From NCBI GenBank assembly GCA_963707215.1, contig CAVPPB010000003.1:1536001-1600000 (forward strand): 64,000 nt of DNA. The letters are read 5' to 3'. Each line of letters begins with the position of its first letter. The first letter of the stretch is position 1. This document shows positions 1,847 to 63,859 of the stretch, in pieces. The notes beneath the pieces are model-generated. The model worked only from the letters and a program-made list of their open reading frames with translations. It did no database searches and had not been told where the DNA came from. Position numbers and translations under genes: made by a program. The stretch comes from an uncultured Chloroflexia bacterium. Lineage in GTDB: Bacteria > Chloroflexota > Limnocylindria > Limnocylindrales > CSP1-4.

Positions 1847-2874
1847 CGCGCGGTCGCCGTCGTCCCCGCTGGCTCGTCCACGACATCGGCAGCCGGCGAC
1901 GCCGCTCGTCGGTCGCGGTTCGCCTCCACGATGCCGACCCGGACGAAGGCGATCCCTCCCCCGACGGTGGTCACCAACAGGATCCCGGCGTGCACGAGGA
2001 GAGCCAGGGCGAACGCCTCGTCGGCCGGGACGCCGATCGAACCGGCGATCGTGACGGCCGCCAGCTCGAACGTCCCAAGGTAGCCGGGGCCCGACGGGAT
2101 GACGGTCGCCAGCGCAACGCCGGCCGACAGGAGGGCCGCCTCGCCCATGGCGAGCTCGATCCCGACGGCCTGGCCAGCGGCCGCGAAGGCGAGGATGGAC
2201 GCTCCCCAGGCACCGGCCGTCAGGACGATCGCTTCGAGGAGGGTGCGGGGCCGACCGACGACGGCCAGGCCCTCGCGGAGTCGCGCCCCCAGCGACCGGA
2301 TCCGCGGGAAGCCATCGACCGTCGCGGCGAGCCGGTCCGCGCCCGGGAGGCGGTGGGCCAGGAGGAGGCCGGCCAGACCAAGGACGAGGAGCCCGGCGAA
2401 GGCGATGCCCACCAGGACGGCACTGGCCAGGACACCGCGGACCGACAGGACAAGGACCGAGCCAGCGGCGAGGAGGACGACGAACGTCGTATCGATGACC
2501 CGCTCGACCACCACGGTCCCGAGGGCCGTGGTTCGACTCAGGCCCTCGCGATCGCCCAGGTAGTGGCTCCGCACGAGTTCGCCGAGCCGGGCAGGCAGGA
2601 CGTTGTTGGCGAGGTAGCCGATCAGCTGGTAGCCGAGCATCCGGACGTAGGCGACGACCGCCACGGGTCGGACGAGCCGTTGCCAGCGCCAGCCCCGCAG
2701 AGCGACATCGGTCACGTTGAGGAGCAGCATCACGGCGATCCACTGCGGTGCCGCCTCGGCCAGCACCTCGAGGACCTGGCCCAGGTCGACCGCCCGGAGG
2801 GCCAGCGCCATGGCAACCAGCGAGATAGCCACTCCGACGGCGCCCCGGATGATGAGCTTGGAGCGGGTCGTCAT
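1843..2874 (-). CDS. lysylphosphatidylglycerol synthase-like TM / flippase-like protein (UPF0104)
   Basis: Multiple TM helices; motifs RGWRW, GYLANNVLPARLGELVR, TVVVERVID, IPSGPGYLGTFE. Confidence 0.85.
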   Translation of the reverse strand: MTTRSKLIIRGAVGVAISLVAMALALRAVDLGQVLEVLAEAAPQWIAVMLLLNVTDVALRGWRWQRLVRPVAVVAYVRMLGYQLIGYLANNVLPARLGELVRSHYLGDREGLSRTTALGTVVVERVIDTTFVVLLAAGSVLVLSVRGVLASAVLVGIAFAGLLVLGLAGLLLAHRLPGADRLAATVDGFPRIRSLGARLREGLAVVGRPRTLLEAIVLTAGAWGASILAFAAAGQAVGIELAMGEAALLSAGVALATVIPSGPGYLGTFELAAVTIAGSIGVPADEAFALALLVHAGILLVTTVGGGIAFVRVGIVEANRDRRAASPAADVVDEPAGTTATAR

Positions 2875-2939: not shown

Positions 2940-3758
2940 TCACGTGGAGGCGCGTGGCCGCCCCGTGGATCCCGCCCGTGGATGTGGGGCCAGCTTGGGT
3001 GATGGCCGGACGCGCACCCGATGGAGCAGGAAGCGGAGCACGACTCGCACGGTGGACAGGCCGTAGACGACACTCCGCACGAAGCCGACCGAGCTGGCCT
3101 CCTCGAAGTAGCGGGTCGGGACGGCGATCTCGCCGATCCGGCTGCCCATACCGGCGGCCACGACCTGAGCGATGAGCTCCTGGTCGAAGACGAAGTCATC
3201 GCTGCTCCGCTTGTACGGGATCGTCTCCAGCAGCTGGCGACTGTACGCTCGCAGGCCCGTGTGGTACTCGGACAGATGCAGCCCGAAGGCGAGGTTCTCG
3301 AGCTTGGTGAGGAACCGGTTGGCGACGAACTTCCAGCGCGGCATCCCGCCGGCGAGCGGATCGCCGAGGAAGCGACTGCCGAGCATCAGGTCGGCCTCGT
3401 CCCGGAGGATCGGCTCGATGAGCGCCGGGATCCGTGTCGCGTCGTACTGGTAGTCGGGGTGGAGCATGACGACGACGTCGGCGCCGTCCGCGAGGGCTGC
3501 GTCGTAGCAGGTCTTCTGGTTCCCGCCGTAGCCGCGGTTCTGGCGGTGGGCGATGACCTCGAGGCCGAGCTGCTGGGCGATCGCGACGGTCTCGTCGTGG
3601 GAGACGTCGTCGACGAGGATGACCCGGGCGACGAGATCGTGCGGGATGTCGGCGTAGGTCCGGTGGAGCGTCCGGGCCGCGTTGTAGGCGGGCATCACGA
3701 CGACGACGCGAGGCACGCGCGCGTCGGCGGGACCTGGTCGCGTCGCGTCCGGAGTCAT
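2940..3758 (-). CDS. glycosyltransferase family 2 (DPM synthase-like)
   Basis: [50 protein letters not shown]; start set at ATG 3758, 6 nt after TACCCT. Confidence 0.9.
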
Positions 3759-3882: not shown

Positions 3883-4485
3883 ATGTTCGACCGACTCTTC
3901 GGCAACCGCTCACCCGATCCGGCGGTCGCGGAGCGCGTCCCGCCCGGCCAGTACCTGACCGAGAAGTTCCCGGTCCTTCACTACGGCTCCGTCCCGAGGA
4001 CCGACTTGGCGAGCTGGGACTTCCGCGTCTACGGCCTCGTCGATAGCCTCCTGACGCTCACCTGGGAGCAGTTCCAGGCGCTGCCCCGCAAGACCGTCAC
4101 GACCGACATCCACTGCGTGACCCGCTGGAGCAAGCTCGACACGACGTGGGAGGGGGTGCCGATCCAGGCGATCCTCGAGGCGGTCGGCGTCCGACCCGAG
4201 GCGACCCATGTCGTCGCCCACGCCGAGCAGGGCTACACGACGAACATGCCGCTGAGCGTGCTCGACGACGATGATGTCCTGCTGGCCGACAGGTACGGAG
4301 GCCAGCCGCTCGATCCGGAGCATGGCTACCCGCTCCGGCTCCTCGTCCCCAAGCGCTATTTCTGGAAGAGCGCCAAGTGGGTCCGTGGCTTGGAGTTCCT
4401 GGACCGGGACGTCCTCGGCTTCTGGGAGCGCTACGGCTATCACAACGACGCCGACCCGTGGAGGGAAGAGCGCTTCAGCGAGTAG
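3883..4485 (+). CDS. sulfite oxidase-like molybdopterin oxidoreductase (YuiH-like)
   Basis: [42 protein letters not shown]; SD AGGAG before ATG 3883. Confidence 0.9.
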
Positions 4486-27424: not shown

Positions 27425-27437
27425 GGGGCAAGCAGTC

Positions 27438-27508
27438 GGGAGGCTGGGAAGCACGGTCCAAACGCGAGTCGCCCGGACCGTGCCGAGCCACTGGCGAGAC
27501 CGGCCCGA
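27438..27508 (+). ncRNA. c-di-GMP-II-like riboswitch (probable variant class)
   Basis: P1 GGCTGG(27442-47)/CCGGCC(27500-05); GAA; stem GCACGGTCC(27451-59)/GGACCGTGC(27475-83); loop TCGCC can pseudoknot with GGCGA in GAGCCACTGGCGAGACC; lies in the 5' UTR of ORF 27557. Confidence 0.7.
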
Positions 27509-27556
27509 AGCGCTGATCGGAGGCACTCCAGGAAGCGCCAAGGGAGGTCGCGAATC

Positions 27557-38216: not shown

Positions 38217-38675
38217 TCAGGCGCCGACCCGCAGGTCGACCTCGTGGATGGTCCCGTCGACGATCCGCCAGGCGCGGATCGACGGCCGGCCCGTGGCAGC
38301 GTCCGCCTCGTCCTCGCTGAGCGACACCAGGACGTACAGGGCGTCGGGATAGAAGGCCAGGCCCACGTCGGTCGGCGAGGGACGGGCGGGCGATCGCACG
38401 TGGGAGTGGACGATGGCCCAGAAGACCTCGTCGGCATCCTCGGTCTCGAGGGTCAGGCGGAGGAGGTCGGCCGGGTCGATCTCGTAGCGGTAGGGCGAGG
38501 CGGCCTTGTTGCGCGCCGGTTCCCAGCGGAGCGGTCGACCACCCTCGGCGGCGGCGCGGTCACCGACGATGAGACCGCACATCTCGTTCGGGTACTCGGC
38601 GCGGGCGTGAGCGACGAGCGCGTCGGCGAGCACCGGAGGCAGCTCGACCGAGGAAGGGCCGGGGTGGCCGGTCAC
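38217..38675 (-). CDS. mec: Mec-like JAB/M67 metallopeptidase (CysO-cysteine peptidase)
   Basis: HARAEYPNEMCG, HSHVRSPARPSPTD (JAMM motif); GTGA overlap with the cysM stop. Confidence 0.88.
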   Translation of the reverse strand: MTGHPGPSSVELPPVLADALVAHARAEYPNEMCGLIVGDRAAAEGGRPLRWEPARNKAASPYRYEIDPADLLRLTLETEDADEVFWAIVHSHVRSPARPSPTDVGLAFYPDALYVLVSLSEDEADAATGRPSIRAWRIVDGTIHEVDLRVGA

Positions 38676-39736
38676 CACCAGTTGACTCCGCCCTCCAGGT
38701 CCTCCTCCATCTCGTCGAGGTCGCGGCTGAAGGTGCCGGCCGACAGGTACTTCCAGCCGCCGTCCGGGAGGAGGGCGACGATCGTCCCTCGCTCCATGGT
38801 CTTCGCCACCCGGGCCGCTGCGACCAGGACCGCTCCGCACGACGGCCCGGCGAAGATGCCCTCCTTGAAGACGAGGTCACGCAGCGCAGCGATCGCATCG
38901 CGGTTGCTGACCAGGAACTTGCCATCGAGGAGCGTCTCGTCGTAGATCTCCGGGACGAAGCCCTCGTCGAGCGAGCGGAGACCCTGGACGTTCTCACCGG
39001 GGAGCGGTTCGGCGGCGTAGACCTTGACCCGCGGCTTGCGCTCGCGCAGGTACCGTGCCACGCCCATCAGGGTCCCACCGGTCCCGAGCCCGGCCACGAA
39101 GGCATCGATCTCCGGGCAATCCGCCAGGATCTCGGGGCCGGTCGTCTCGTAGTGGGCCAGGGGGTTGGCCGGGTTGCCGTACTGGTACGGCATGACGAAG
39201 CGGGGATCCTTGGCGACCAGGTGCTTGGCCAGCGCGATGGCGCCATTGGAGCCAAGGCGCCCCGGGGAGTCGATGATCTCCGCCCCGTACAGGGCGGCCA
39301 TCTGGCGGCGCTCGGCGGTCACGTTGTCGGGCATCACCAGGGCGACCCGGTAGCCCTTCCGGCGACCGATCATCGCCAGGGCGATGCCGGTGTTGCCCGA
39401 CGTGGGCTCGAGGATGATCGACTCGTCGGTCAGCAGGCCCCGGCGCTCCAGGTCCTCGACGAGGTACTTCGCCGCCCGATCCTTCACCGACCCGGTCGGG
39501 TTGTACATCTCGAGCTTGGCGTAGATCCGCACCTCCGGCGTCGGGCTCATCCTCGGGATGGCCACCAGGGGCGTATGCCCGACGGCGTCGAGGATGGACT
39601 CGTGCCGGCCGCCGTGGCGGGGCAGGTCCTCGTGACCGTGGAGGTGAGGGAAGGCCGGATCGTGCCCGTGACCCGGCGCGGGAGCGACGTCCCCGGCCGG
39701 GGACGTCCGCGAGGCCCGGGGTGTCGCCACGGTCAT
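38672..39736 (-). CDS. cysM: PLP-dependent cysteine synthase (CysO-dependent CysM-like)
   Basis: GHTPLV, KLE..NPTGSVKDR, EPTSGNTGIAL, YQYGNPAN, GLGTGGT, DGGWKYLS; lies next to cysO and mec. Confidence 0.9.
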   Translation of the reverse strand: MTVATPRASRTSPAGDVAPAPGHGHDPAFPHLHGHEDLPRHGGRHESILDAVGHTPLVAIPRMSPTPEVRIYAKLEMYNPTGSVKDRAAKYLVEDLERRGLLTDESIILEPTSGNTGIALAMIGRRKGYRVALVMPDNVTAERRQMAALYGAEIIDSPGRLGSNGAIALAKHLVAKDPRFVMPYQYGNPANPLAHYETTGPEILADCPEIDAFVAGLGTGGTLMGVARYLRERKPRVKVYAAEPLPGENVQGLRSLDEGFVPEIYDETLLDGKFLVSNRDAIAALRDLVFKEGIFAGPSCGAVLVAAARVAKTMERGTIVALLPDGGWKYLSAGTFSRDLDEMEEDLEGGVNWW

Positions 39737-40005
39737 CCGCCGGCCATGGCGGGCAGGATGATCACCGTGTCGGTCGGACCGACCGGCGTGGCCCGCTCCT
39801 GGAGGAAGCGGACGTCCTGCCCATCCACGTAGACATTGACGAAGCGGTTCAGCTCCCCGTCGGGCGTCAGGAGCTGGCCCTCCAGCGTCGGATAGCGGGC
39901 GATCAGGGCGGCGATGACCTCGCCGACCGTCGTCGCCTCGACCTCGACCTGTTTGTCGCCGCCGGCCGAGGCCCGCAGGACCGGCGGGATCCTCACCGTG
40001 GTCAT
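39733..40005 (-). CDS. cysO: ubiquitin-like sulfur carrier (CysO/MoaD/ThiS family)
   Basis: TVRIPPVLR..GG..RFVNVYV..DVRF..ILPAMAGG (C-terminal GG). Confidence 0.88.
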   Translation of the reverse strand: MTTVRIPPVLRASAGGDKQVEVEATTVGEVIAALIARYPTLEGQLLTPDGELNRFVNVYVDGQDVRFLQERATPVGPTDTVIILPAMAGG

Positions 40006-41279
40006 GCCCGGGACTCCGGGTCGGAGGCCACGGGCTCCGGGTCGTACGCGAGGCCCGCCGCCGCCCCGAAGCCGCCGCCGAGGACGAACGTCTCGGTCGC
40101 GCCGGTGGCAGCGGTCGCGACGGTCGCCGTCTCCAGCGGGCGGCCGGCCTTCCGTGCCTCGACCGCCGCGTCGGAGCAGGTCGGGCAGGCTGGGTCCCGC
40201 CTGAGCTTCAGCTCGGTGAACGACGCGTCGAGCGCGTCGAAGAGGAGCAGTCGCCCGGCCAGGGAGTCGCCGATGCCGAGGATGAGCTTGAGCGCCTCGT
40301 TCGCCTGGAGCATGCCCATGATCCCGGGCACGACGCCCAGGACGCCTGCCACGGAGCAGCCCGGGGCGAGCTCGGGCGGCGGCGGCGTCGGGTAGAGGCA
40401 GCGGTAGCACGGACCCTCGAACGGCTTGAAGACCGTCAGCTGGCCCTCGAACCGGAAGACCGAGGCATGGACCACCGGGATCCCGGCGGCGACCGCGGCG
40501 TCGTTGAGCAGGTAGCGGGTCTCGAAGGTGTCGGTTCCGTCGAGGATGACGTCGTAGCCGGCGATGATCCGCTCGACGTTGTCGGCGACCAGCATCTCCT
40601 CGTGACCGACCACGGTCACCTCGGGGTTGATGGCGTTGATCGTCTGCCGCGCCGACTCGACCTTCTGGGTGCCCACGCGATCCGTCGTGTGGAGGATCTG
40701 GCGCTGGAGGTTGGAGACGTCGACGACGTCGAAGTCGACGATGCCGACCGTGCCGACCCCGGCCGCGGCCAGGTACAGGGCCGCCGGCGACCCGAGCCCC
40801 CCGGCACCGACGAGCAGGACCTTGGCGTCGAGCAGCCTGCCCTGGCCCTCGAGACCCACCTCGGGGATGAGCAGGTGGCGGCTGTAACGCCGCTTCTGGG
40901 CGTCGGTCAGGATCCGCGGCACGTCCCAGTCGAGGCCCTGGGCCTTCCATGACTGGAAGCCGCCGGCCATCGAGGCGACGTTCGTGTAGCCGAGCTGCTG
41001 GAGCGTCTGGCCGGCGAAGAGCGAGCGGATCCCACCGGCGCAGTAGATGACGACGGGACGGTCGCGGTCGGGGATGGCGGCCTCGATGTCCTGCTCGAGG
41101 TAGCTCTTGGAGACGTGGAGAGCACCGGGCGCGTGTCCGGCCTCCCACTCGATCTCCTCGCGGACGTCGAGCAGGACGGTCCGCGGATCGGCGGCCCGGG
41201 CGGCATCGGCCTCGAGCGCGCTGACCTCGCGGACCTGCTCGCGGGCCTCGCGAAGGAGATCGGCGTACGACTTGGGCAT
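40002..41279 (-). CDS. moeB: MoeZ/MoeB-type adenylyltransferase with N-terminal rhodanese domain
   Basis: Rhodanese (LLDVRE..W..GHAPGA, YCAGGIRS); RYSRHLLIPEVG, VGAGGLGSP, SNLQRQ, CYRC, CPTC. Confidence 0.92.
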   Translation of the reverse strand: MPKSYADLLREAREQVREVSALEADAARAADPRTVLLDVREEIEWEAGHAPGALHVSKSYLEQDIEAAIPDRDRPVVIYCAGGIRSLFAGQTLQQLGYTNVASMAGGFQSWKAQGLDWDVPRILTDAQKRRYSRHLLIPEVGLEGQGRLLDAKVLLVGAGGLGSPAALYLAAAGVGTVGIVDFDVVDVSNLQRQILHTTDRVGTQKVESARQTINAINPEVTVVGHEEMLVADNVERIIAGYDVILDGTDTFETRYLLNDAAVAAGIPVVHASVFRFEGQLTVFKPFEGPCYRCLYPTPPPPELAPGCSVAGVLGVVPGIMGMLQANEALKLILGIGDSLAGRLLLFDALDASFTELKLRRDPACPTCSDAAVEARKAGRPLETATVATAATGATETFVLGGGFGAAAGLAYDPEPVASDPESRA

Positions 41280-41431
41280 CTGGTTGGTGGCTCCGATGGG
41301 GCGACGGGCTGCCGCCGGAGCGGCAGGGCGGTGGTGATCGACGCGTCCGTGGCGTGTCCGCTAGGAGTTCGGGCGGGGTGGGGCCACGGTTTCCCGCTGC
41401 CGGTCGCCGGGGCGGCGGGGGCTCCGCCGGC

Positions 41432-41482
41432 TCAGCGATCCGGCCGCCGACACCTGCAGCGGCCCAGGCGGTCCATCGTCAT
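41432..41482 (-). CDS. putative cysteine-containing leader peptide MTMDRLGRCRCRRPDR
   Basis: ATG overlaps the sufU stop (ATGA); CxC codons; ends 152 nt before moeZ; GRCxC motif shared with 63226..63309. Confidence 0.6.
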   Translation of the reverse strand: MTMDRLGRCRCRRPDR

Positions 41483-41916
41483 GCCCCGCGCTCGGCAGGG
41501 TGGGCATCCGGGGCCACGCCGGCGGCAGCTTCGTCCTGGGTCGGCTGGATGCCTGCCTCGACGAGGGCCTTCTTGAGGGTGTCGTAACTGAGCATCGCGC
41601 ACTTGAGCCGGGCCGGGCTGATCTCGATCCCCAGCAGGTCGAGGAGATCGTCGGCCCGGAAGGCGGCCACGTCGGCGACCGGCTTGCCCTTGATCTCGTC
41701 GGTCAGAAGGGAGGCGCTGGCCTGGCTGATGGCACAGCCGCGCCCGGTGAAGCCGACCTGGTCGACGACCCCGTCGGTGACGTGGATCTGGAGGGTGATC
41801 CGGTCACCGCAGAGCGGGTTGTTGCCCTCGATGCTCGCCGACGGCTCCTCCAGCACCCCGAAGTTGTGGGGCCGCCGGTAGTGCTCCAGGATGTAGTCGC
41901 GGTAGAGGTCGTCCAC
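41479..41916 (-). CDS. sufU: SUF system NifU-family Fe-S assembly protein
   Basis: DDLYRDYILEHY..P.NFG, NPLCGD, GRGCAISQASASL, RLKCAML. Confidence 0.93.
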   Translation of the reverse strand: MDDLYRDYILEHYRRPHNFGVLEEPSASIEGNNPLCGDRITLQIHVTDGVVDQVGFTGRGCAISQASASLLTDEIKGKPVADVAAFRADDLLDLLGIEISPARLKCAMLSYDTLKKALVEAGIQPTQDEAAAGVAPDAHPAERGA

Positions 41917-62304: not shown

Positions 62305-63162
62305 TCATCCGCCGGCGGACCGCTCGATCGGCACGCCGACCATGCTCCCCCACTCGGTCCAGCTTCCGTCGTAGTTGCGGACCCGCGGGTAGCCGAGCAG
62401 CTCGTGGAGGACGAACCAGGTGTGCGACGAGCGCTCGCCGATGCGGCAGTACGCGATGACGTCCCTGTCCGCCTTGACGCCCTTCGCCCCGTAGAGATCG
62501 CGGAGCTCGTCGGCGCTCTTGAAGCGACCATCCTCCGCGACGGCCTGGGCCCACGGGATCGAGGCTGCGCCCGGGATGTGGCCGGCCCGCTGGGCCGTCT
62601 CGCTCATGCCGGGTGGGGCGATGACCTCGCCGGCGAACTCGGCCGGGCTGCGGACGTCGACGAGGACGAGGTTGGGATCGCCGAGTCTCGGCAGGATGTC
62701 GTCGCGGAAGGCCCGCGTCGAGAAGTCGGCCGGCGGCAGCTCGTAGGCGGTCTCCGGGTAGGTCGGGGCATCGACCGAGAGCGCGAGCCCGCGGTCAAGC
62801 CAGTAGCGGCGCCCGCCATCGAGGATGCGCACGTCCTTGTGCCCGTAGAGTCGCAGCTGCCAGTACGCCCAGGCGGCGAACCAGTTGTTGTTGTCGCCGT
62901 ACAGGACGACGGTCGTCTCCGGCCCGATGCCACTCTTCGACAGGAGCCGGCCCAGGTCCTCGCGGCTGGCGATGTCGCGACGGATCCCGTCCGACAGCTG
63001 GCTCGTCCAGTCCCAGCCGATGGCGCCGGGGATGTGGCTCTGGTCATAGGCCGTCGTGTCGACATCGACCTCGACGAAGCGGACCGAGGGATGGTCGAGA
63101 TGCTCGAGCGCCCAGTCGGCGCTGACGAGGGCCCGATCGTGGCCGGTGATCTTGGCGGTCAT
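62305..63162 (-). CDS. sulfurtransferase (tandem rhodanese, CysA/SseA-like)
   Basis: LVSADW, HIPGA x2, YGDNNNWFAA, DVRSPAEF, YCRIGERS, NYDGSWTEWG; SD AAGGAG. Confidence 0.94.
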   Translation of the reverse strand: MTAKITGHDRALVSADWALEHLDHPSVRFVEVDVDTTAYDQSHIPGAIGWDWTSQLSDGIRRDIASREDLGRLLSKSGIGPETTVVLYGDNNNWFAAWAYWQLRLYGHKDVRILDGGRRYWLDRGLALSVDAPTYPETAYELPPADFSTRAFRDDILPRLGDPNLVLVDVRSPAEFAGEVIAPPGMSETAQRAGHIPGAASIPWAQAVAEDGRFKSADELRDLYGAKGVKADRDVIAYCRIGERSSHTWFVLHELLGYPRVRNYDGSWTEWGSMVGVPIERSAGG

Positions 63163-63225
63163 GGGATCTCCTTCGCGGGTGGTGGCCGTGCGCCACCGGT
63201 GCGGGGACGTCGAGGGGATCGGGGG

Positions 63226-63309
63226 TCAGGGGCGTCGGCGGGTCCTGCGAGCGGGGTCGCGGACCCGCCAGGGACACGCGCAGCGGCCCACCGGACGTCG
63301 CTCAACCAT
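63226..63309 (-). CDS. putative cysteine-containing leader peptide MVERRPVGRCACPWRVRDPARRTRRRP
   Basis: ATG overlaps the stop of the upstream gene by 8 nt; GRCAC; hairpin 63237-63269 follows the Cys codons; ends 63 nt before the sulfurtransferase. Confidence 0.55.
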   Translation of the reverse strand: MVERRPVGRCACPWRVRDPARRTRRRP

Positions 63310-63757
63310 CGCCGGTCGGTCGGTCCCGGCGGCTGAAATCCAGGAGCACTTCCCGGCAGGCGTCCTCGGCGCGCCGGGCCTGGCCGACGATCCAGGGATC
63401 CACTCGCGAGCTGTCCTCGATGGCGACCGTGGCCCCGTACGGGCCATCCTCGACGACGATCCCGGAGGCGTTCCGGTAGTCGGCCATCCAGTTCGCCTGG
63501 AGCTGGAGCACGACGTCGGTGACGACGGCTACCGGGAAGTGCCAGTCGAGCCAGGCCGCGTCCAGGCGGGCCGCGACGTCGGCCAACCGCACCGGGTCGC
63601 CCCGCTCGAGACGGGCCAGGAGGTCGATGACCCGGAGGGTCGTGAACGGGTCCCCCGACTCGGCGACCGTCGGCGGCTGGATGGACGGGTCCGGCAGGCC
63701 GGCCGGCGCCTCTCGAAGGACGAGACGACCGATCTCCAGAGGCGGGACGTCGGTCAC
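63302..63757 (-). CDS. hypothetical protein
   Basis: 151-aa protein-like ORF with SD AGGAG; first gene of a unit with the sulfurtransferase. Confidence 0.75.
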   Translation of the reverse strand: MTDVPPLEIGRLVLREAPAGLPDPSIQPPTVAESGDPFTTLRVIDLLARLERGDPVRLADVAARLDAAWLDWHFPVAVVTDVVLQLQANWMADYRNASGIVVEDGPYGATVAIEDSSRVDPWIVGQARRAEDACREVLLDFSRRDRPTGDG

Positions 63758-63765
63758 GGCGGCTG

Positions 63766-63790
63766 AACTCCTACTAATCCGATAGGGATA
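63766..63790. promoter_or_regulatory. degenerate Rrf2-type operator
   Basis: AACTCCTAC-taatccg-ATAGGGATA (6/9 match to each consensus half); AT-rich island 4 nt downstream of TGcTATCCT on the minus strand. Confidence 0.5.
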
Positions 63791-63859
63791 GGTGAGGATA
63801 GCACGGGCCCCGGGATCCGCCCGAACGGCCCGCCCCTGATCGCCGGGTCCGGGTCATCG

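Follow-up and report, generated by a model that had tools for sequence, protein, structure and literature searches.

What are two short, cysteine-bearing reading frames doing just ahead of sulfur genes in the genome of an uncultured bacterium, each with a hairpin close behind its cysteine codons? The stretch of DNA that raises this question, hereafter the window, comprises 64,000 nucleotides (nt) from an uncultured Chloroflexia bacterium (GTDB lineage Chloroflexota; Limnocylindria; Limnocylindrales; CSP1-4; assembly GCA_963707215.1, contig CAVPPB010000003.1, positions 1,536,001 to 1,600,000). An initial annotation, made from the letters of the window, singled out a short open reading frame (ORF) between a gene of 151 amino acids and a sulfurtransferase gene as the second example of a repeated regulatory design. 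We consider it likely that this short ORF is a Cys-codon sensor, and the element as a whole (ORF, hairpin and the C-rich spacer that follows) is probably a ribosome-mediated cysteine sensor placed between the genes of an operon. Comparison of related sequences establishes a conserved frame with a coupled start and Cys codons, a fixed spacing to a hairpin that covaries, a C-rich spacer and a sulfur context. All features of the window named below lie on the minus strand unless the plus strand is given. The parts of the element ahead of the sulfurtransferase gene, and the genes on either side, are as follows.

63302..63757, minus strand: upstream gene of 151 amino acids, its stop codon overlapped by the start of the short ORF
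63226..63309, minus strand: short ORF MVERRPVGRCACPWRVRDPARRTRRRP, 27 codons and a stop (from the ORF list and translation)
63307..63309, minus strand: ATG start codon of the short ORF, inside ATGGTTGA; the upstream TGA is 63304-63302
63274..63282, minus strand: Cys-x-Cys codons TGC GCG TGT after GGC CGC (Gly-Arg), with TGC at 63282-63280 and TGT at 63276-63274
63237..63269, minus strand: first hairpin, GGCGGGTCCGCGA-loop-TCGC-A-GGACCCGCC, beginning 4 nt past the TGT
63198..63236, minus strand: C-rich, G-poor part of the spacer between the two hairpins, similar in composition to a Rho utilisation (rut) site
63181..63197, minus strand: second, small hairpin GGTGGC-GCACG-GCCACC immediately before the ribosome-binding site, from predicted folds
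63167..63174, minus strand: Shine-Dalgarno (SD) sequence GAAGGAGA of the sulfurtransferase gene
62305..63162, minus strand: two-domain rhodanese sulfurtransferase, SseA/CysA2-like (two Pfam Rhodanese matches)

The initial annotation had the short ORF overlapping the upstream stop codon and the hairpin lying 4 nt past the second Cys codon, with a C-rich tract behind it, and both placements held. The gap between the flanking genes is 139 nt. In a 46-nt frame the first hairpin has a predicted energy of -28.3 kcal/mol (z -4.3, none of 200 shuffles as good), and the 171-nt leader as a whole folds with an energy unremarkable against shuffles (z -0.43). The 60-nt spacer at 63236-63177, which includes the second hairpin, is 55% C and 23% G; the second hairpin is present in all three ribosome states that we modelled, and its sequence differs between loci. 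The nearest NCBIfam model to the sulfurtransferase is 3-mercaptopyruvate sulfurtransferase, below cut-off. By eye, no AT-rich -10-like sequence precedes the start of the short ORF in the window. A programmed -1 frameshift site was considered as an account of the codon-to-hairpin spacing and was ruled out, as inspection by eye found no slippery heptamer.

A conserved reading frame with a coupled start

To see what is kept in relatives, we fetched the sulfurtransferase genes of related genomes, finding them in 29 of 41, and read 17 non-self upstream regions, bearing in mind that relatives are non-independent samples. A short frame with a hairpin is present at 12 of the 17 loci, ten with two Cys codons and two with one; in the unit, ...R-C-x-C... 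precedes a hairpin whose foot is GCGGG/CCCGC. The homologous loci thus keep both the open frame and its Cys codons, the absence of which the initial annotation had named as grounds for abandoning its reading. CC-x-C occurs only in L063 and L065, nearly all other copies having C-x-C.

A covariance model (R1) was then built from 13 copies (alignment A1), with both copies from the window among the seeds. It gives 27 matches in 18 of the 41 related genomes, recovering all 13 seeds and adding 14 non-seed sites; one of these stands before a second sulfurtransferase and 13 stand before moeZ orthologs, assigned by N-terminal similarity to the MoeZ of the window, judged by eye and not by family search. 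In the genome of the window (G000) the two known copies score 50.4 and 45.2 bits, and the next match reaches at most 21 bits with E at least 0.6. Both G000 matches were in the seed and are not independent, so the independent evidence is the 14 non-seed matches. The initial annotation had held that two occurrences argue against chance; the conclusion stands, on the strength of the 12 loci of 17 and the 14 non-seed matches, and the two-copy argument by itself is weak, because the pattern was read off those same two copies and ORFs are open everywhere in DNA of 72% GC.

Further afield, a strict DNA pattern applied to one genome per species found 96 stretches; the 80 of them that were listed contain 51 model matches at E <=0.01, and this set is biased to the nucleotide motif of the window. 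Forty of the 42 loci scoring at least 34.8 bits are labelled Chloroflexota (Candidatus Limnocylindrales, Chloroflexia, Chloroflexota, Anaerolinea). Within the class, R1, which is nucleotide-specific and would miss diverged forms, has matches in 20 of the 44 genomes sampled from family f1 and in none of 106 from four other families.

Whether the frame is real can be judged from its start. Long upstream ORFs are present at 68 loci. In 57 of these the Cys frame has a start codon within -6 to +9 nt of the upstream stop and stays open from there; each of the two control frames does so in 6 of 68. Of 41 distinct sulfurtransferase leaders, 39 have an in-frame start in the same interval, mostly as ATGnnTGA or ATGA/GTGA, and in the moeZ-type copies (relatives and G000) the start overlaps the upstream stop in 13 of 14 (ATGA, GTGA, TGATG), with L057 starting 2 nt after it. 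Only 6 of 39 leaders have an SD-like motif ahead of the short ORF, whereas all 39 have one ahead of the sulfurtransferase gene. Between its start and the second Cys codon the short ORF has 19 different lengths in the 41 leaders, from 5 to 31 codons; across all 19 lengths the insertions and deletions before the Cys codons are multiples of three, and the N-terminal peptide is without any conservation.

The codons themselves point the same way. The Arg before the first Cys has four codons (CGC, CGT, CGA and CGG) and that Cys has two (TGC and TGT), and this synonymous variation, which the initial annotation had proposed as a check, speaks for a peptide or codon signal. In the middle codon of C-x-C no position is fixed, in contrast to the flanking TG[CT] and TGT. 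The second Cys codon is TGT in 64 of 64 distinct copies, about two thirds of which come from a pattern that demands TGT, the model too having been trained on TGT; TGT likewise stands there in each of the 28 copies that protein anchors or the model turned up in relatives. In the genome TGT makes up 11.9% of Cys codons, and Cys 0.62% of all codons. Nascent-peptide arrest sequences, which act in the exit tunnel, have conserved residues among the last ~10 positions ahead of the stall site; in the element only the G-R before C-x-C is conserved, its Arg being encoded by four different codons, and farther upstream everything varies.

Hairpin covariation, spacer and gene context

With 64 distinct copies aligned to the model, 88.9% of cells pair, in a fitted alignment that leans to structure. 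Seven of the 12 hairpin pairs change on both sides, giving 40 compensatory cells compared with 13 +/- 3.4 in shuffles (0 of 500 as high), and sliding the hairpin partner by 1-3 columns lowers pairing to 31-59%. The foot GCGGG/CCCGC is nearly invariant, and it is the inner stem that covaries, for example CGG/CCG vs CGA/TCG. The two types of locus have different hairpins (GGCGGGCC... vs GCCGGC...) at equal distance from the TGT. With automatic choice of the hairpin, 23 of 41 leaders have the stop codon of the ORF within the loop, 14 have it in an arm and four past the hairpin. Stability alone is weak evidence in DNA of 72% GC: in a permissive best-hairpin test of 21 of the 41 leaders the mean was -25.7 kcal/mol against -18.4 +/- 6.7 for shuffles, and 14% of dinucleotide shuffles reach that mean. 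As this is only about one standard deviation better than shuffles, the case for structure rests on position and covariation.

The spacers after the hairpin have a mean C of 0.48 and G of 0.25. C exceeds G in all 39 of 39 related spacers, and 56% of spacers are skewed to a degree that 0.94% of genome windows attain.

The second copy in the window, 21.8 kb from the first, is arranged as follows.

41479..41916, minus strand: sufU, upstream of the second short ORF (Pfam NifU_N; NCBIfam SufU above cut-off)
41432..41482, minus strand: paralogous short ORF MTMDRLGRCRCRRPDR, its ATG overlapping the sufU TGA as ATGA
41411..41448, minus strand: hairpin region past the Cys codons of the moeZ leader (the covariance model match of 45.2 bits)
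41302..41330, minus strand: conserved second hairpin CCCTGCCG-loop-CGGCAG plus CCCGTCG, located 6-10 nt ahead of the moeZ GGAG
38217..41279, minus strand: operon of moeZ-like, cysO-like, cysM and mec-like genes (Pfam and NCBIfam searches)

In that order, the four products match MoeB/MoeZ (ThiF and rhodanese), a MoaD/SAMP-like carrier, a cysteine synthase subfamily and a JAMM desampylase-like protein. The motif that the initial annotation saw in both leaders is indeed common to them: the 18-nt motif TGGGCCGCTGCNNGTGTC occurs only at 63290-63273 and 41466-41449, in the window as in the 3.26-Mb genome, although a count of 0 in 100 shuffles is inflated because the pattern was derived from the same two copies. 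It was also right that both copies precede sulfur genes, here a rhodanese sulfurtransferase and a MoeB/MoeZ-like enzyme. A genome-wide scan for GRCxC gave 77 matches at the DNA level; a crude mask for coding sequence takes in no more than 80% of the genome, and 15 of the matches lie outside it. Among the matches only the two known copies resemble the element, in a scan too crude for an enrichment statistic.

The moeZ leaders of relatives have a short GCCGGC-CTGA-GCCGGC hairpin with the ORF stop in its loop. By eye, 9 of 14 moeZ leaders (the window and L051, L053, L055, L056, L057, L061, L063 and L064) also carry a hairpin CCCUGNCG-loop-CGNCAG followed by CCCGUCG before the ribosome-binding site, with compensatory CUGACG/CGUCAG and CUGUCG/CGACAG variants, likewise judged by eye.

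Every identified context of the element is one of sulfur or cysteine metabolism. The ORFs downstream of it in public genomes are Rhodanese in 27 of 43 cases, DUF4395 in four, OsmC in one and carbonic anhydrase in one; the remaining 10 have no family, several of them being cases in which the wrong reading frame was taken and tblastn finds a sulfurtransferase there. A PALP (cysteine-synthase-like) gene lies upstream of the DUF4395-type element in 5 of 6 tested loci, and the module as a whole is located behind three unrelated upstream genes.

Two of the DUF4395 loci have a further feature: an S-adenosylmethionine (SAM) riboswitch (RF00162) before the PALP gene of the short-ORF/DUF4395 unit, in L066 at 4057-4165 (plus strand, 75 bits) and in L083 at 2081-2193 (plus strand, 67 bits). 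A SAM sensor and a Cys sensor may thus follow each other in one operon. L066 also has two short-ORF units 700 nt apart.

A ribosome-mediated sensor and its alternatives

What we infer from this pattern is that the ORF is translated and that ribosomes stall on it, as well as which way regulation runs and at what step it takes effect; attenuator function and any arrest-peptide action belong with these inferences. In the scheme that we propose, ribosomes leaving the upstream gene would restart at the overlapping start codon of the short ORF, which has no ribosome-binding site of its own; at the second locus, the ribosomes terminating on sufU would supply it. After the variable N-terminal stretch they would meet Arg-Cys-x-Cys, with the second Cys encoded by the rare, wobble-read UGU. 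The hairpin begins 4-5 nt past this codon, and the front of a ribosome that holds UGU in its A site would stand on the conserved foot GGCGGG/CCCGCC. When Cys-tRNA is plentiful, the ribosome would reach the stop codon, usually in the hairpin loop, and depart; the hairpin would then close, followed by a naked C-rich, G-poor spacer, and the default would be low expression. When Cys-tRNA is scarce, the ribosome would be parked at the Cys codons and hold the foot open, allowing more transcript or more translation into the sulfurtransferase, moeZ-cysO-cysM or DUF4395 gene. As the mycobacterial Cys short ORFs (discussed below) raise expression when cysteine is scarce, we read the element as an attenuator that is on at low cysteine.

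The low state would most likely be premature termination helped by Rho, which we favour because a U tract is missing and the spacer is of rut-like composition; the genome does encode Rho (TIGR00767 match of 611.5 bits, cut-off 509). Transcription termination, by the hairpin, by Rho or by both, is put forward tentatively, at less than even odds, as the output, and an output that is translational or works via mRNA stability seems somewhat unlikely to us.

A number of results weigh against a sensor of this kind. The element was not found at 5 of the 17 related sulfurtransferase loci, and two relatives (L013 and L014) keep only one Cys codon. Even the typical copy has only two Cys codons, one residue apart, and the conserved Gly-Arg before them and Pro after them are not needed by a pure codon sensor. 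The constancy of TGT may partly reflect pairing, since about half of the leaders pair its GU and the next C with a GAC downstream of the hairpin, 19 of 41 being unpaired. Neither hairpin is followed by a U tract, C-rich sequence standing there instead, so that this is not a canonical intrinsic terminator, and a simple kinetic model of termination by the hairpin alone could not be made to work, by reasoning and not by computation, whether the ribosome was tightly coupled to the polymerase or lagging behind it. In folds of the 41 leaders the predicted SD accessibility was 0.44, 0.48 and 0.50 with the ribosome free, stalled and terminating, respectively (stalled vs terminating, p 0.20), showing no stall-specific gain; downstream structure was 0.42 when stalled vs 0.46 (p 0.05), less probable on stalling in 7 of 39 and more probable in 2 of 39. 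Modelled in this way, neither an SD unmasking of the Ms5788A type nor a trp-type switch is supported. Finally, contigs of public sequencing runs (two RNA, two DNA), short in the RNA runs, covered pieces of the conserved rhodanese gene, mostly 85-95% alike, and none lay across 63218-63370, which permits no conclusion on transcription.

The unit might be more elaborate than a sensor of hungry codons. The Arg-Cys-x-Cys-Pro nascent end together with UGU could pause the ribosome at the hairpin foot, the hairpin bringing it beside a minimal Rho-loading tract where it would block Rho in a TnaC-like manner, and the rate of upstream translation would set the supply of sensor ribosomes. We regard such a coupled arrest unit as unlikely, although if it were true one operon could respond to two signals, for instance in L066 and L083, where a SAM riboswitch would govern the first gene and Cys-tRNA the second, and the uncultured Chloroflexota family would have a lineage-specific "Cys ribulon".

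The same sensor might instead act after transcription, the stalled ribosome freeing the downstream ribosome-binding site, as in Ms5788A and ermC, or preventing cleavage or decay at the hairpin. We think this rather unlikely, even though the only tested precedent (10.1101/834739) unmasks a Shine-Dalgarno sequence, a steady-state mechanism avoids the problem of timing between polymerase and ribosome after intercistronic restart, and many leaders have a second hairpin just ahead of the ribosome-binding site. That second hairpin persists in all three ribosome states in the folds of the 5 of 41 leaders inspected, the predicted accessibility values given above lack a stall-specific gain, and a post-transcriptional output leaves the C-rich, G-poor spacer, which all 39 of 39 leaders have, without a role.

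Nor does the short ORF have to be a sensor; it could encode a working CxC micro-peptide, for instance a metal- or persulfide-binding partner of sulfur enzymes. G-R-C-x-C-P-x-R is conserved as residues with some synonymous codon changes, and it always adjoins thiol and sulfur-transfer enzymes, but the N-terminal part comes in 19 lengths with no conserved sequence, the stop position moves between loop, arm and beyond, and the module is found behind three unrelated upstream genes. The residues past the Cys pair also differ by type of locus (CPxRARS vs CRRPA) exactly as the hairpins differ, suggesting that these residues track RNA structure. A micro-peptide therefore appears improbable.

That the element is only an intercistronic hairpin, terminating or stabilising the upstream message, or a protein-binding nucleic-acid motif, with its open frame a by-product of high GC, is very improbable: ORFs do open by chance at 72% GC, three loci without the short ORF (L007, L008 and L009) retain hairpin and C-rich spacer, and the nucleotide motif GGGCCGCTGC is very well conserved, but coupling to the upstream stop is seen for the Cys frame in 57 of 68 loci and for the control frames in 6 and 6, the indels before the Cys codons are multiples of three over 19 lengths, the middle codon is free at three positions while TG[CT] and TGT are kept, and two Cys codons stand together where Cys accounts for 0.62% of genome codons.

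Relation to known leaders and other observations

Leader ORFs with Cys codons ahead of cys operons were predicted in Actinobacteria in 2005 (Seliverstov et al., PMC1262725), and mycobacterial Cys short ORFs are cysteine-responsive attenuators, one of them before the cysA2 thiosulfate sulfurtransferase operon (Canestrari et al. 2020, 10.1101/834739). The initial annotation had spoken of an apparently undescribed family of GRCxC attenuators or arrest peptides. Leader ORFs with Cys codons are thus already known as a class, and the novelty that remains concerns the particular family, of which no description was found in Rfam or in a literature text search that has most subscription journals and supplements outside it. 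In Rfam 15 neither leader has a match at gathering score, and at E <=1 there was none either, save a noise match to a microRNA elsewhere in L032.

The mycobacterial polycysteine short ORFs (Ms5788A/Rv0815A, the "Cys ribulon") are the nearest system that has been tested by experiment. They too are unannotated Cys-codon ORFs before cysteine and sulfur genes, including the cysA2 sulfurtransferase operon and cysteine synthase genes, and they too form a regulon of several loci per genome that is read by ribosomes, with no dedicated protein regulator. They differ in being leaderless, whereas the Chloroflexota ORF starts on the stop codon of the upstream gene (39 of 41), and in having at least two consecutive Cys codons where the Chloroflexota element has C-x-C. 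A local hairpin that begins 4-5 nt past the last Cys codon and encloses the stop in its loop is a feature of the Chloroflexota element. In Ms5788A the Cys tract pairs with the SD sequence and hides it, and no such duplex is predicted in the 41 Chloroflexota leaders. The hosts belong to different phyla, Chloroflexota vs Actinobacteria, and the lack of sequence similarity to the mycobacterial short ORFs suggests an independent origin.

The actinobacterial leaders of 2005 share with the element Cys-codon ORFs and the want of a recognisable terminator, for which Rho-dependent termination on pyrimidine-rich spacers was proposed (PMC1262725). Their Cys runs lie beside the stop codon at the 5' end of the operon with no conserved hairpin, whereas the Chloroflexota element has a conserved hairpin and a consistently C-rich spacer.

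Like the trp, his and leu attenuators, the element has regulatory codons 5' of the first hairpin, a leader stop in or near the loop, and amino-acid codons before pathway genes. The leu leader uses rare CUA codons for the amino acid sensed, comparable to the rare UGU here. Unlike in these attenuators, folding gave no consistent sign of alternative antiterminator/terminator pairing, there is no U-tract terminator, and ribosomes come to the leader by translational coupling instead of through a ribosome-binding site of its own. The tnaC leader of the E. coli tna operon likewise has a short ORF and then a C-rich Rho-loading region before the structural gene, where a parked ribosome would decide the access of Rho. 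The tna ribosome stalls directly on the rut site, at the stop codon, and it is free tryptophan that is sensed via the nascent peptide; here the stall would likely be at hungry Cys codons, with a hairpin between them and the C-rich tract. Taken by analogy, the element would act like the mycobacterial Cys short ORFs without having their defining features, and it would also fall outside the classical definition of an attenuator.

If our reading is correct, cysteine sensing by leader ORFs extends from Actinobacteria to Chloroflexota. A sensor ORF inside the operon, loaded by the ribosomes of the upstream gene, would make the distal genes tunable separately from the proximal ones. The geometry (rare UGU, a gap of 4-5 nt, a hairpin with the stop in its loop, a C-rich tract) would also be a compact system for studying how a stalled ribosome signals without a terminator/antiterminator pair, and signalling without a terminator is a question that has stood for the actinobacterial cys leaders since 2005. 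The element would mark a cysteine regulon in an uncultured lineage and tie DUF4395 and the 151-amino-acid gene to sulfur metabolism.

Several variants of the arrangement were seen along the way. Among the sulfurtransferase loci without the Cys ORF (L007, L008, L009 and L012), the three read for this feature, L007, L008 and L009, have kept the hairpin and C-rich spacer between the upstream gene and the sulfurtransferase, as judged by eye; the sensor may have been added to an intercistronic element that is older. About 30 nt ahead of the model match at 3216-3277, L105 has a tandem duplication of the core, GRCACPGRCAC, which puts two C-x-C units into a single frame.

In family f2, a sister family with small genomes (L017 and L019-L026), a different conserved short ORF, MTS(T/M/S)QLRALEGEPSIC and then a stop, is found about 60-130 nt upstream of the sulfurtransferase start, with a single TGT Cys codon directly before the stop. 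A -10-like box, TATCGT or TATCTT, lies 7-9 nt before its ATG, so that this short ORF may be leaderless. Differences between loci are, by eye, mostly third-position and synonymous, and the three loci searched (L017, L020 and L024) gave no Rfam match.

The 151-amino-acid gene itself gave no lead in Pfam, NCBIfam or Atlas (best Atlas score 0.76), and its link to sulfur metabolism comes from position only. ORFs of 150-280 amino acids that precede the sulfurtransferase leaders of relatives have a similar C-terminal motif, ...VDPWIV..., by eye. Immediately upstream of the gene, at 63760-63800 on the minus strand, an unusually AT-rich stretch, ctatcctcacctatccctatcggattagtaggag, was noted by eye; it looks like the promoter and ribosome-binding site of the operon of the 151-amino-acid gene, in which case this gene and the sulfurtransferase would share one transcript. 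Elsewhere in the window, and unrelated to the element, positions 27430-27515 on the plus strand match the c-di-GMP-II-GAG riboswitch (RF03169) with 66.2 bits, against a gathering score of 40.

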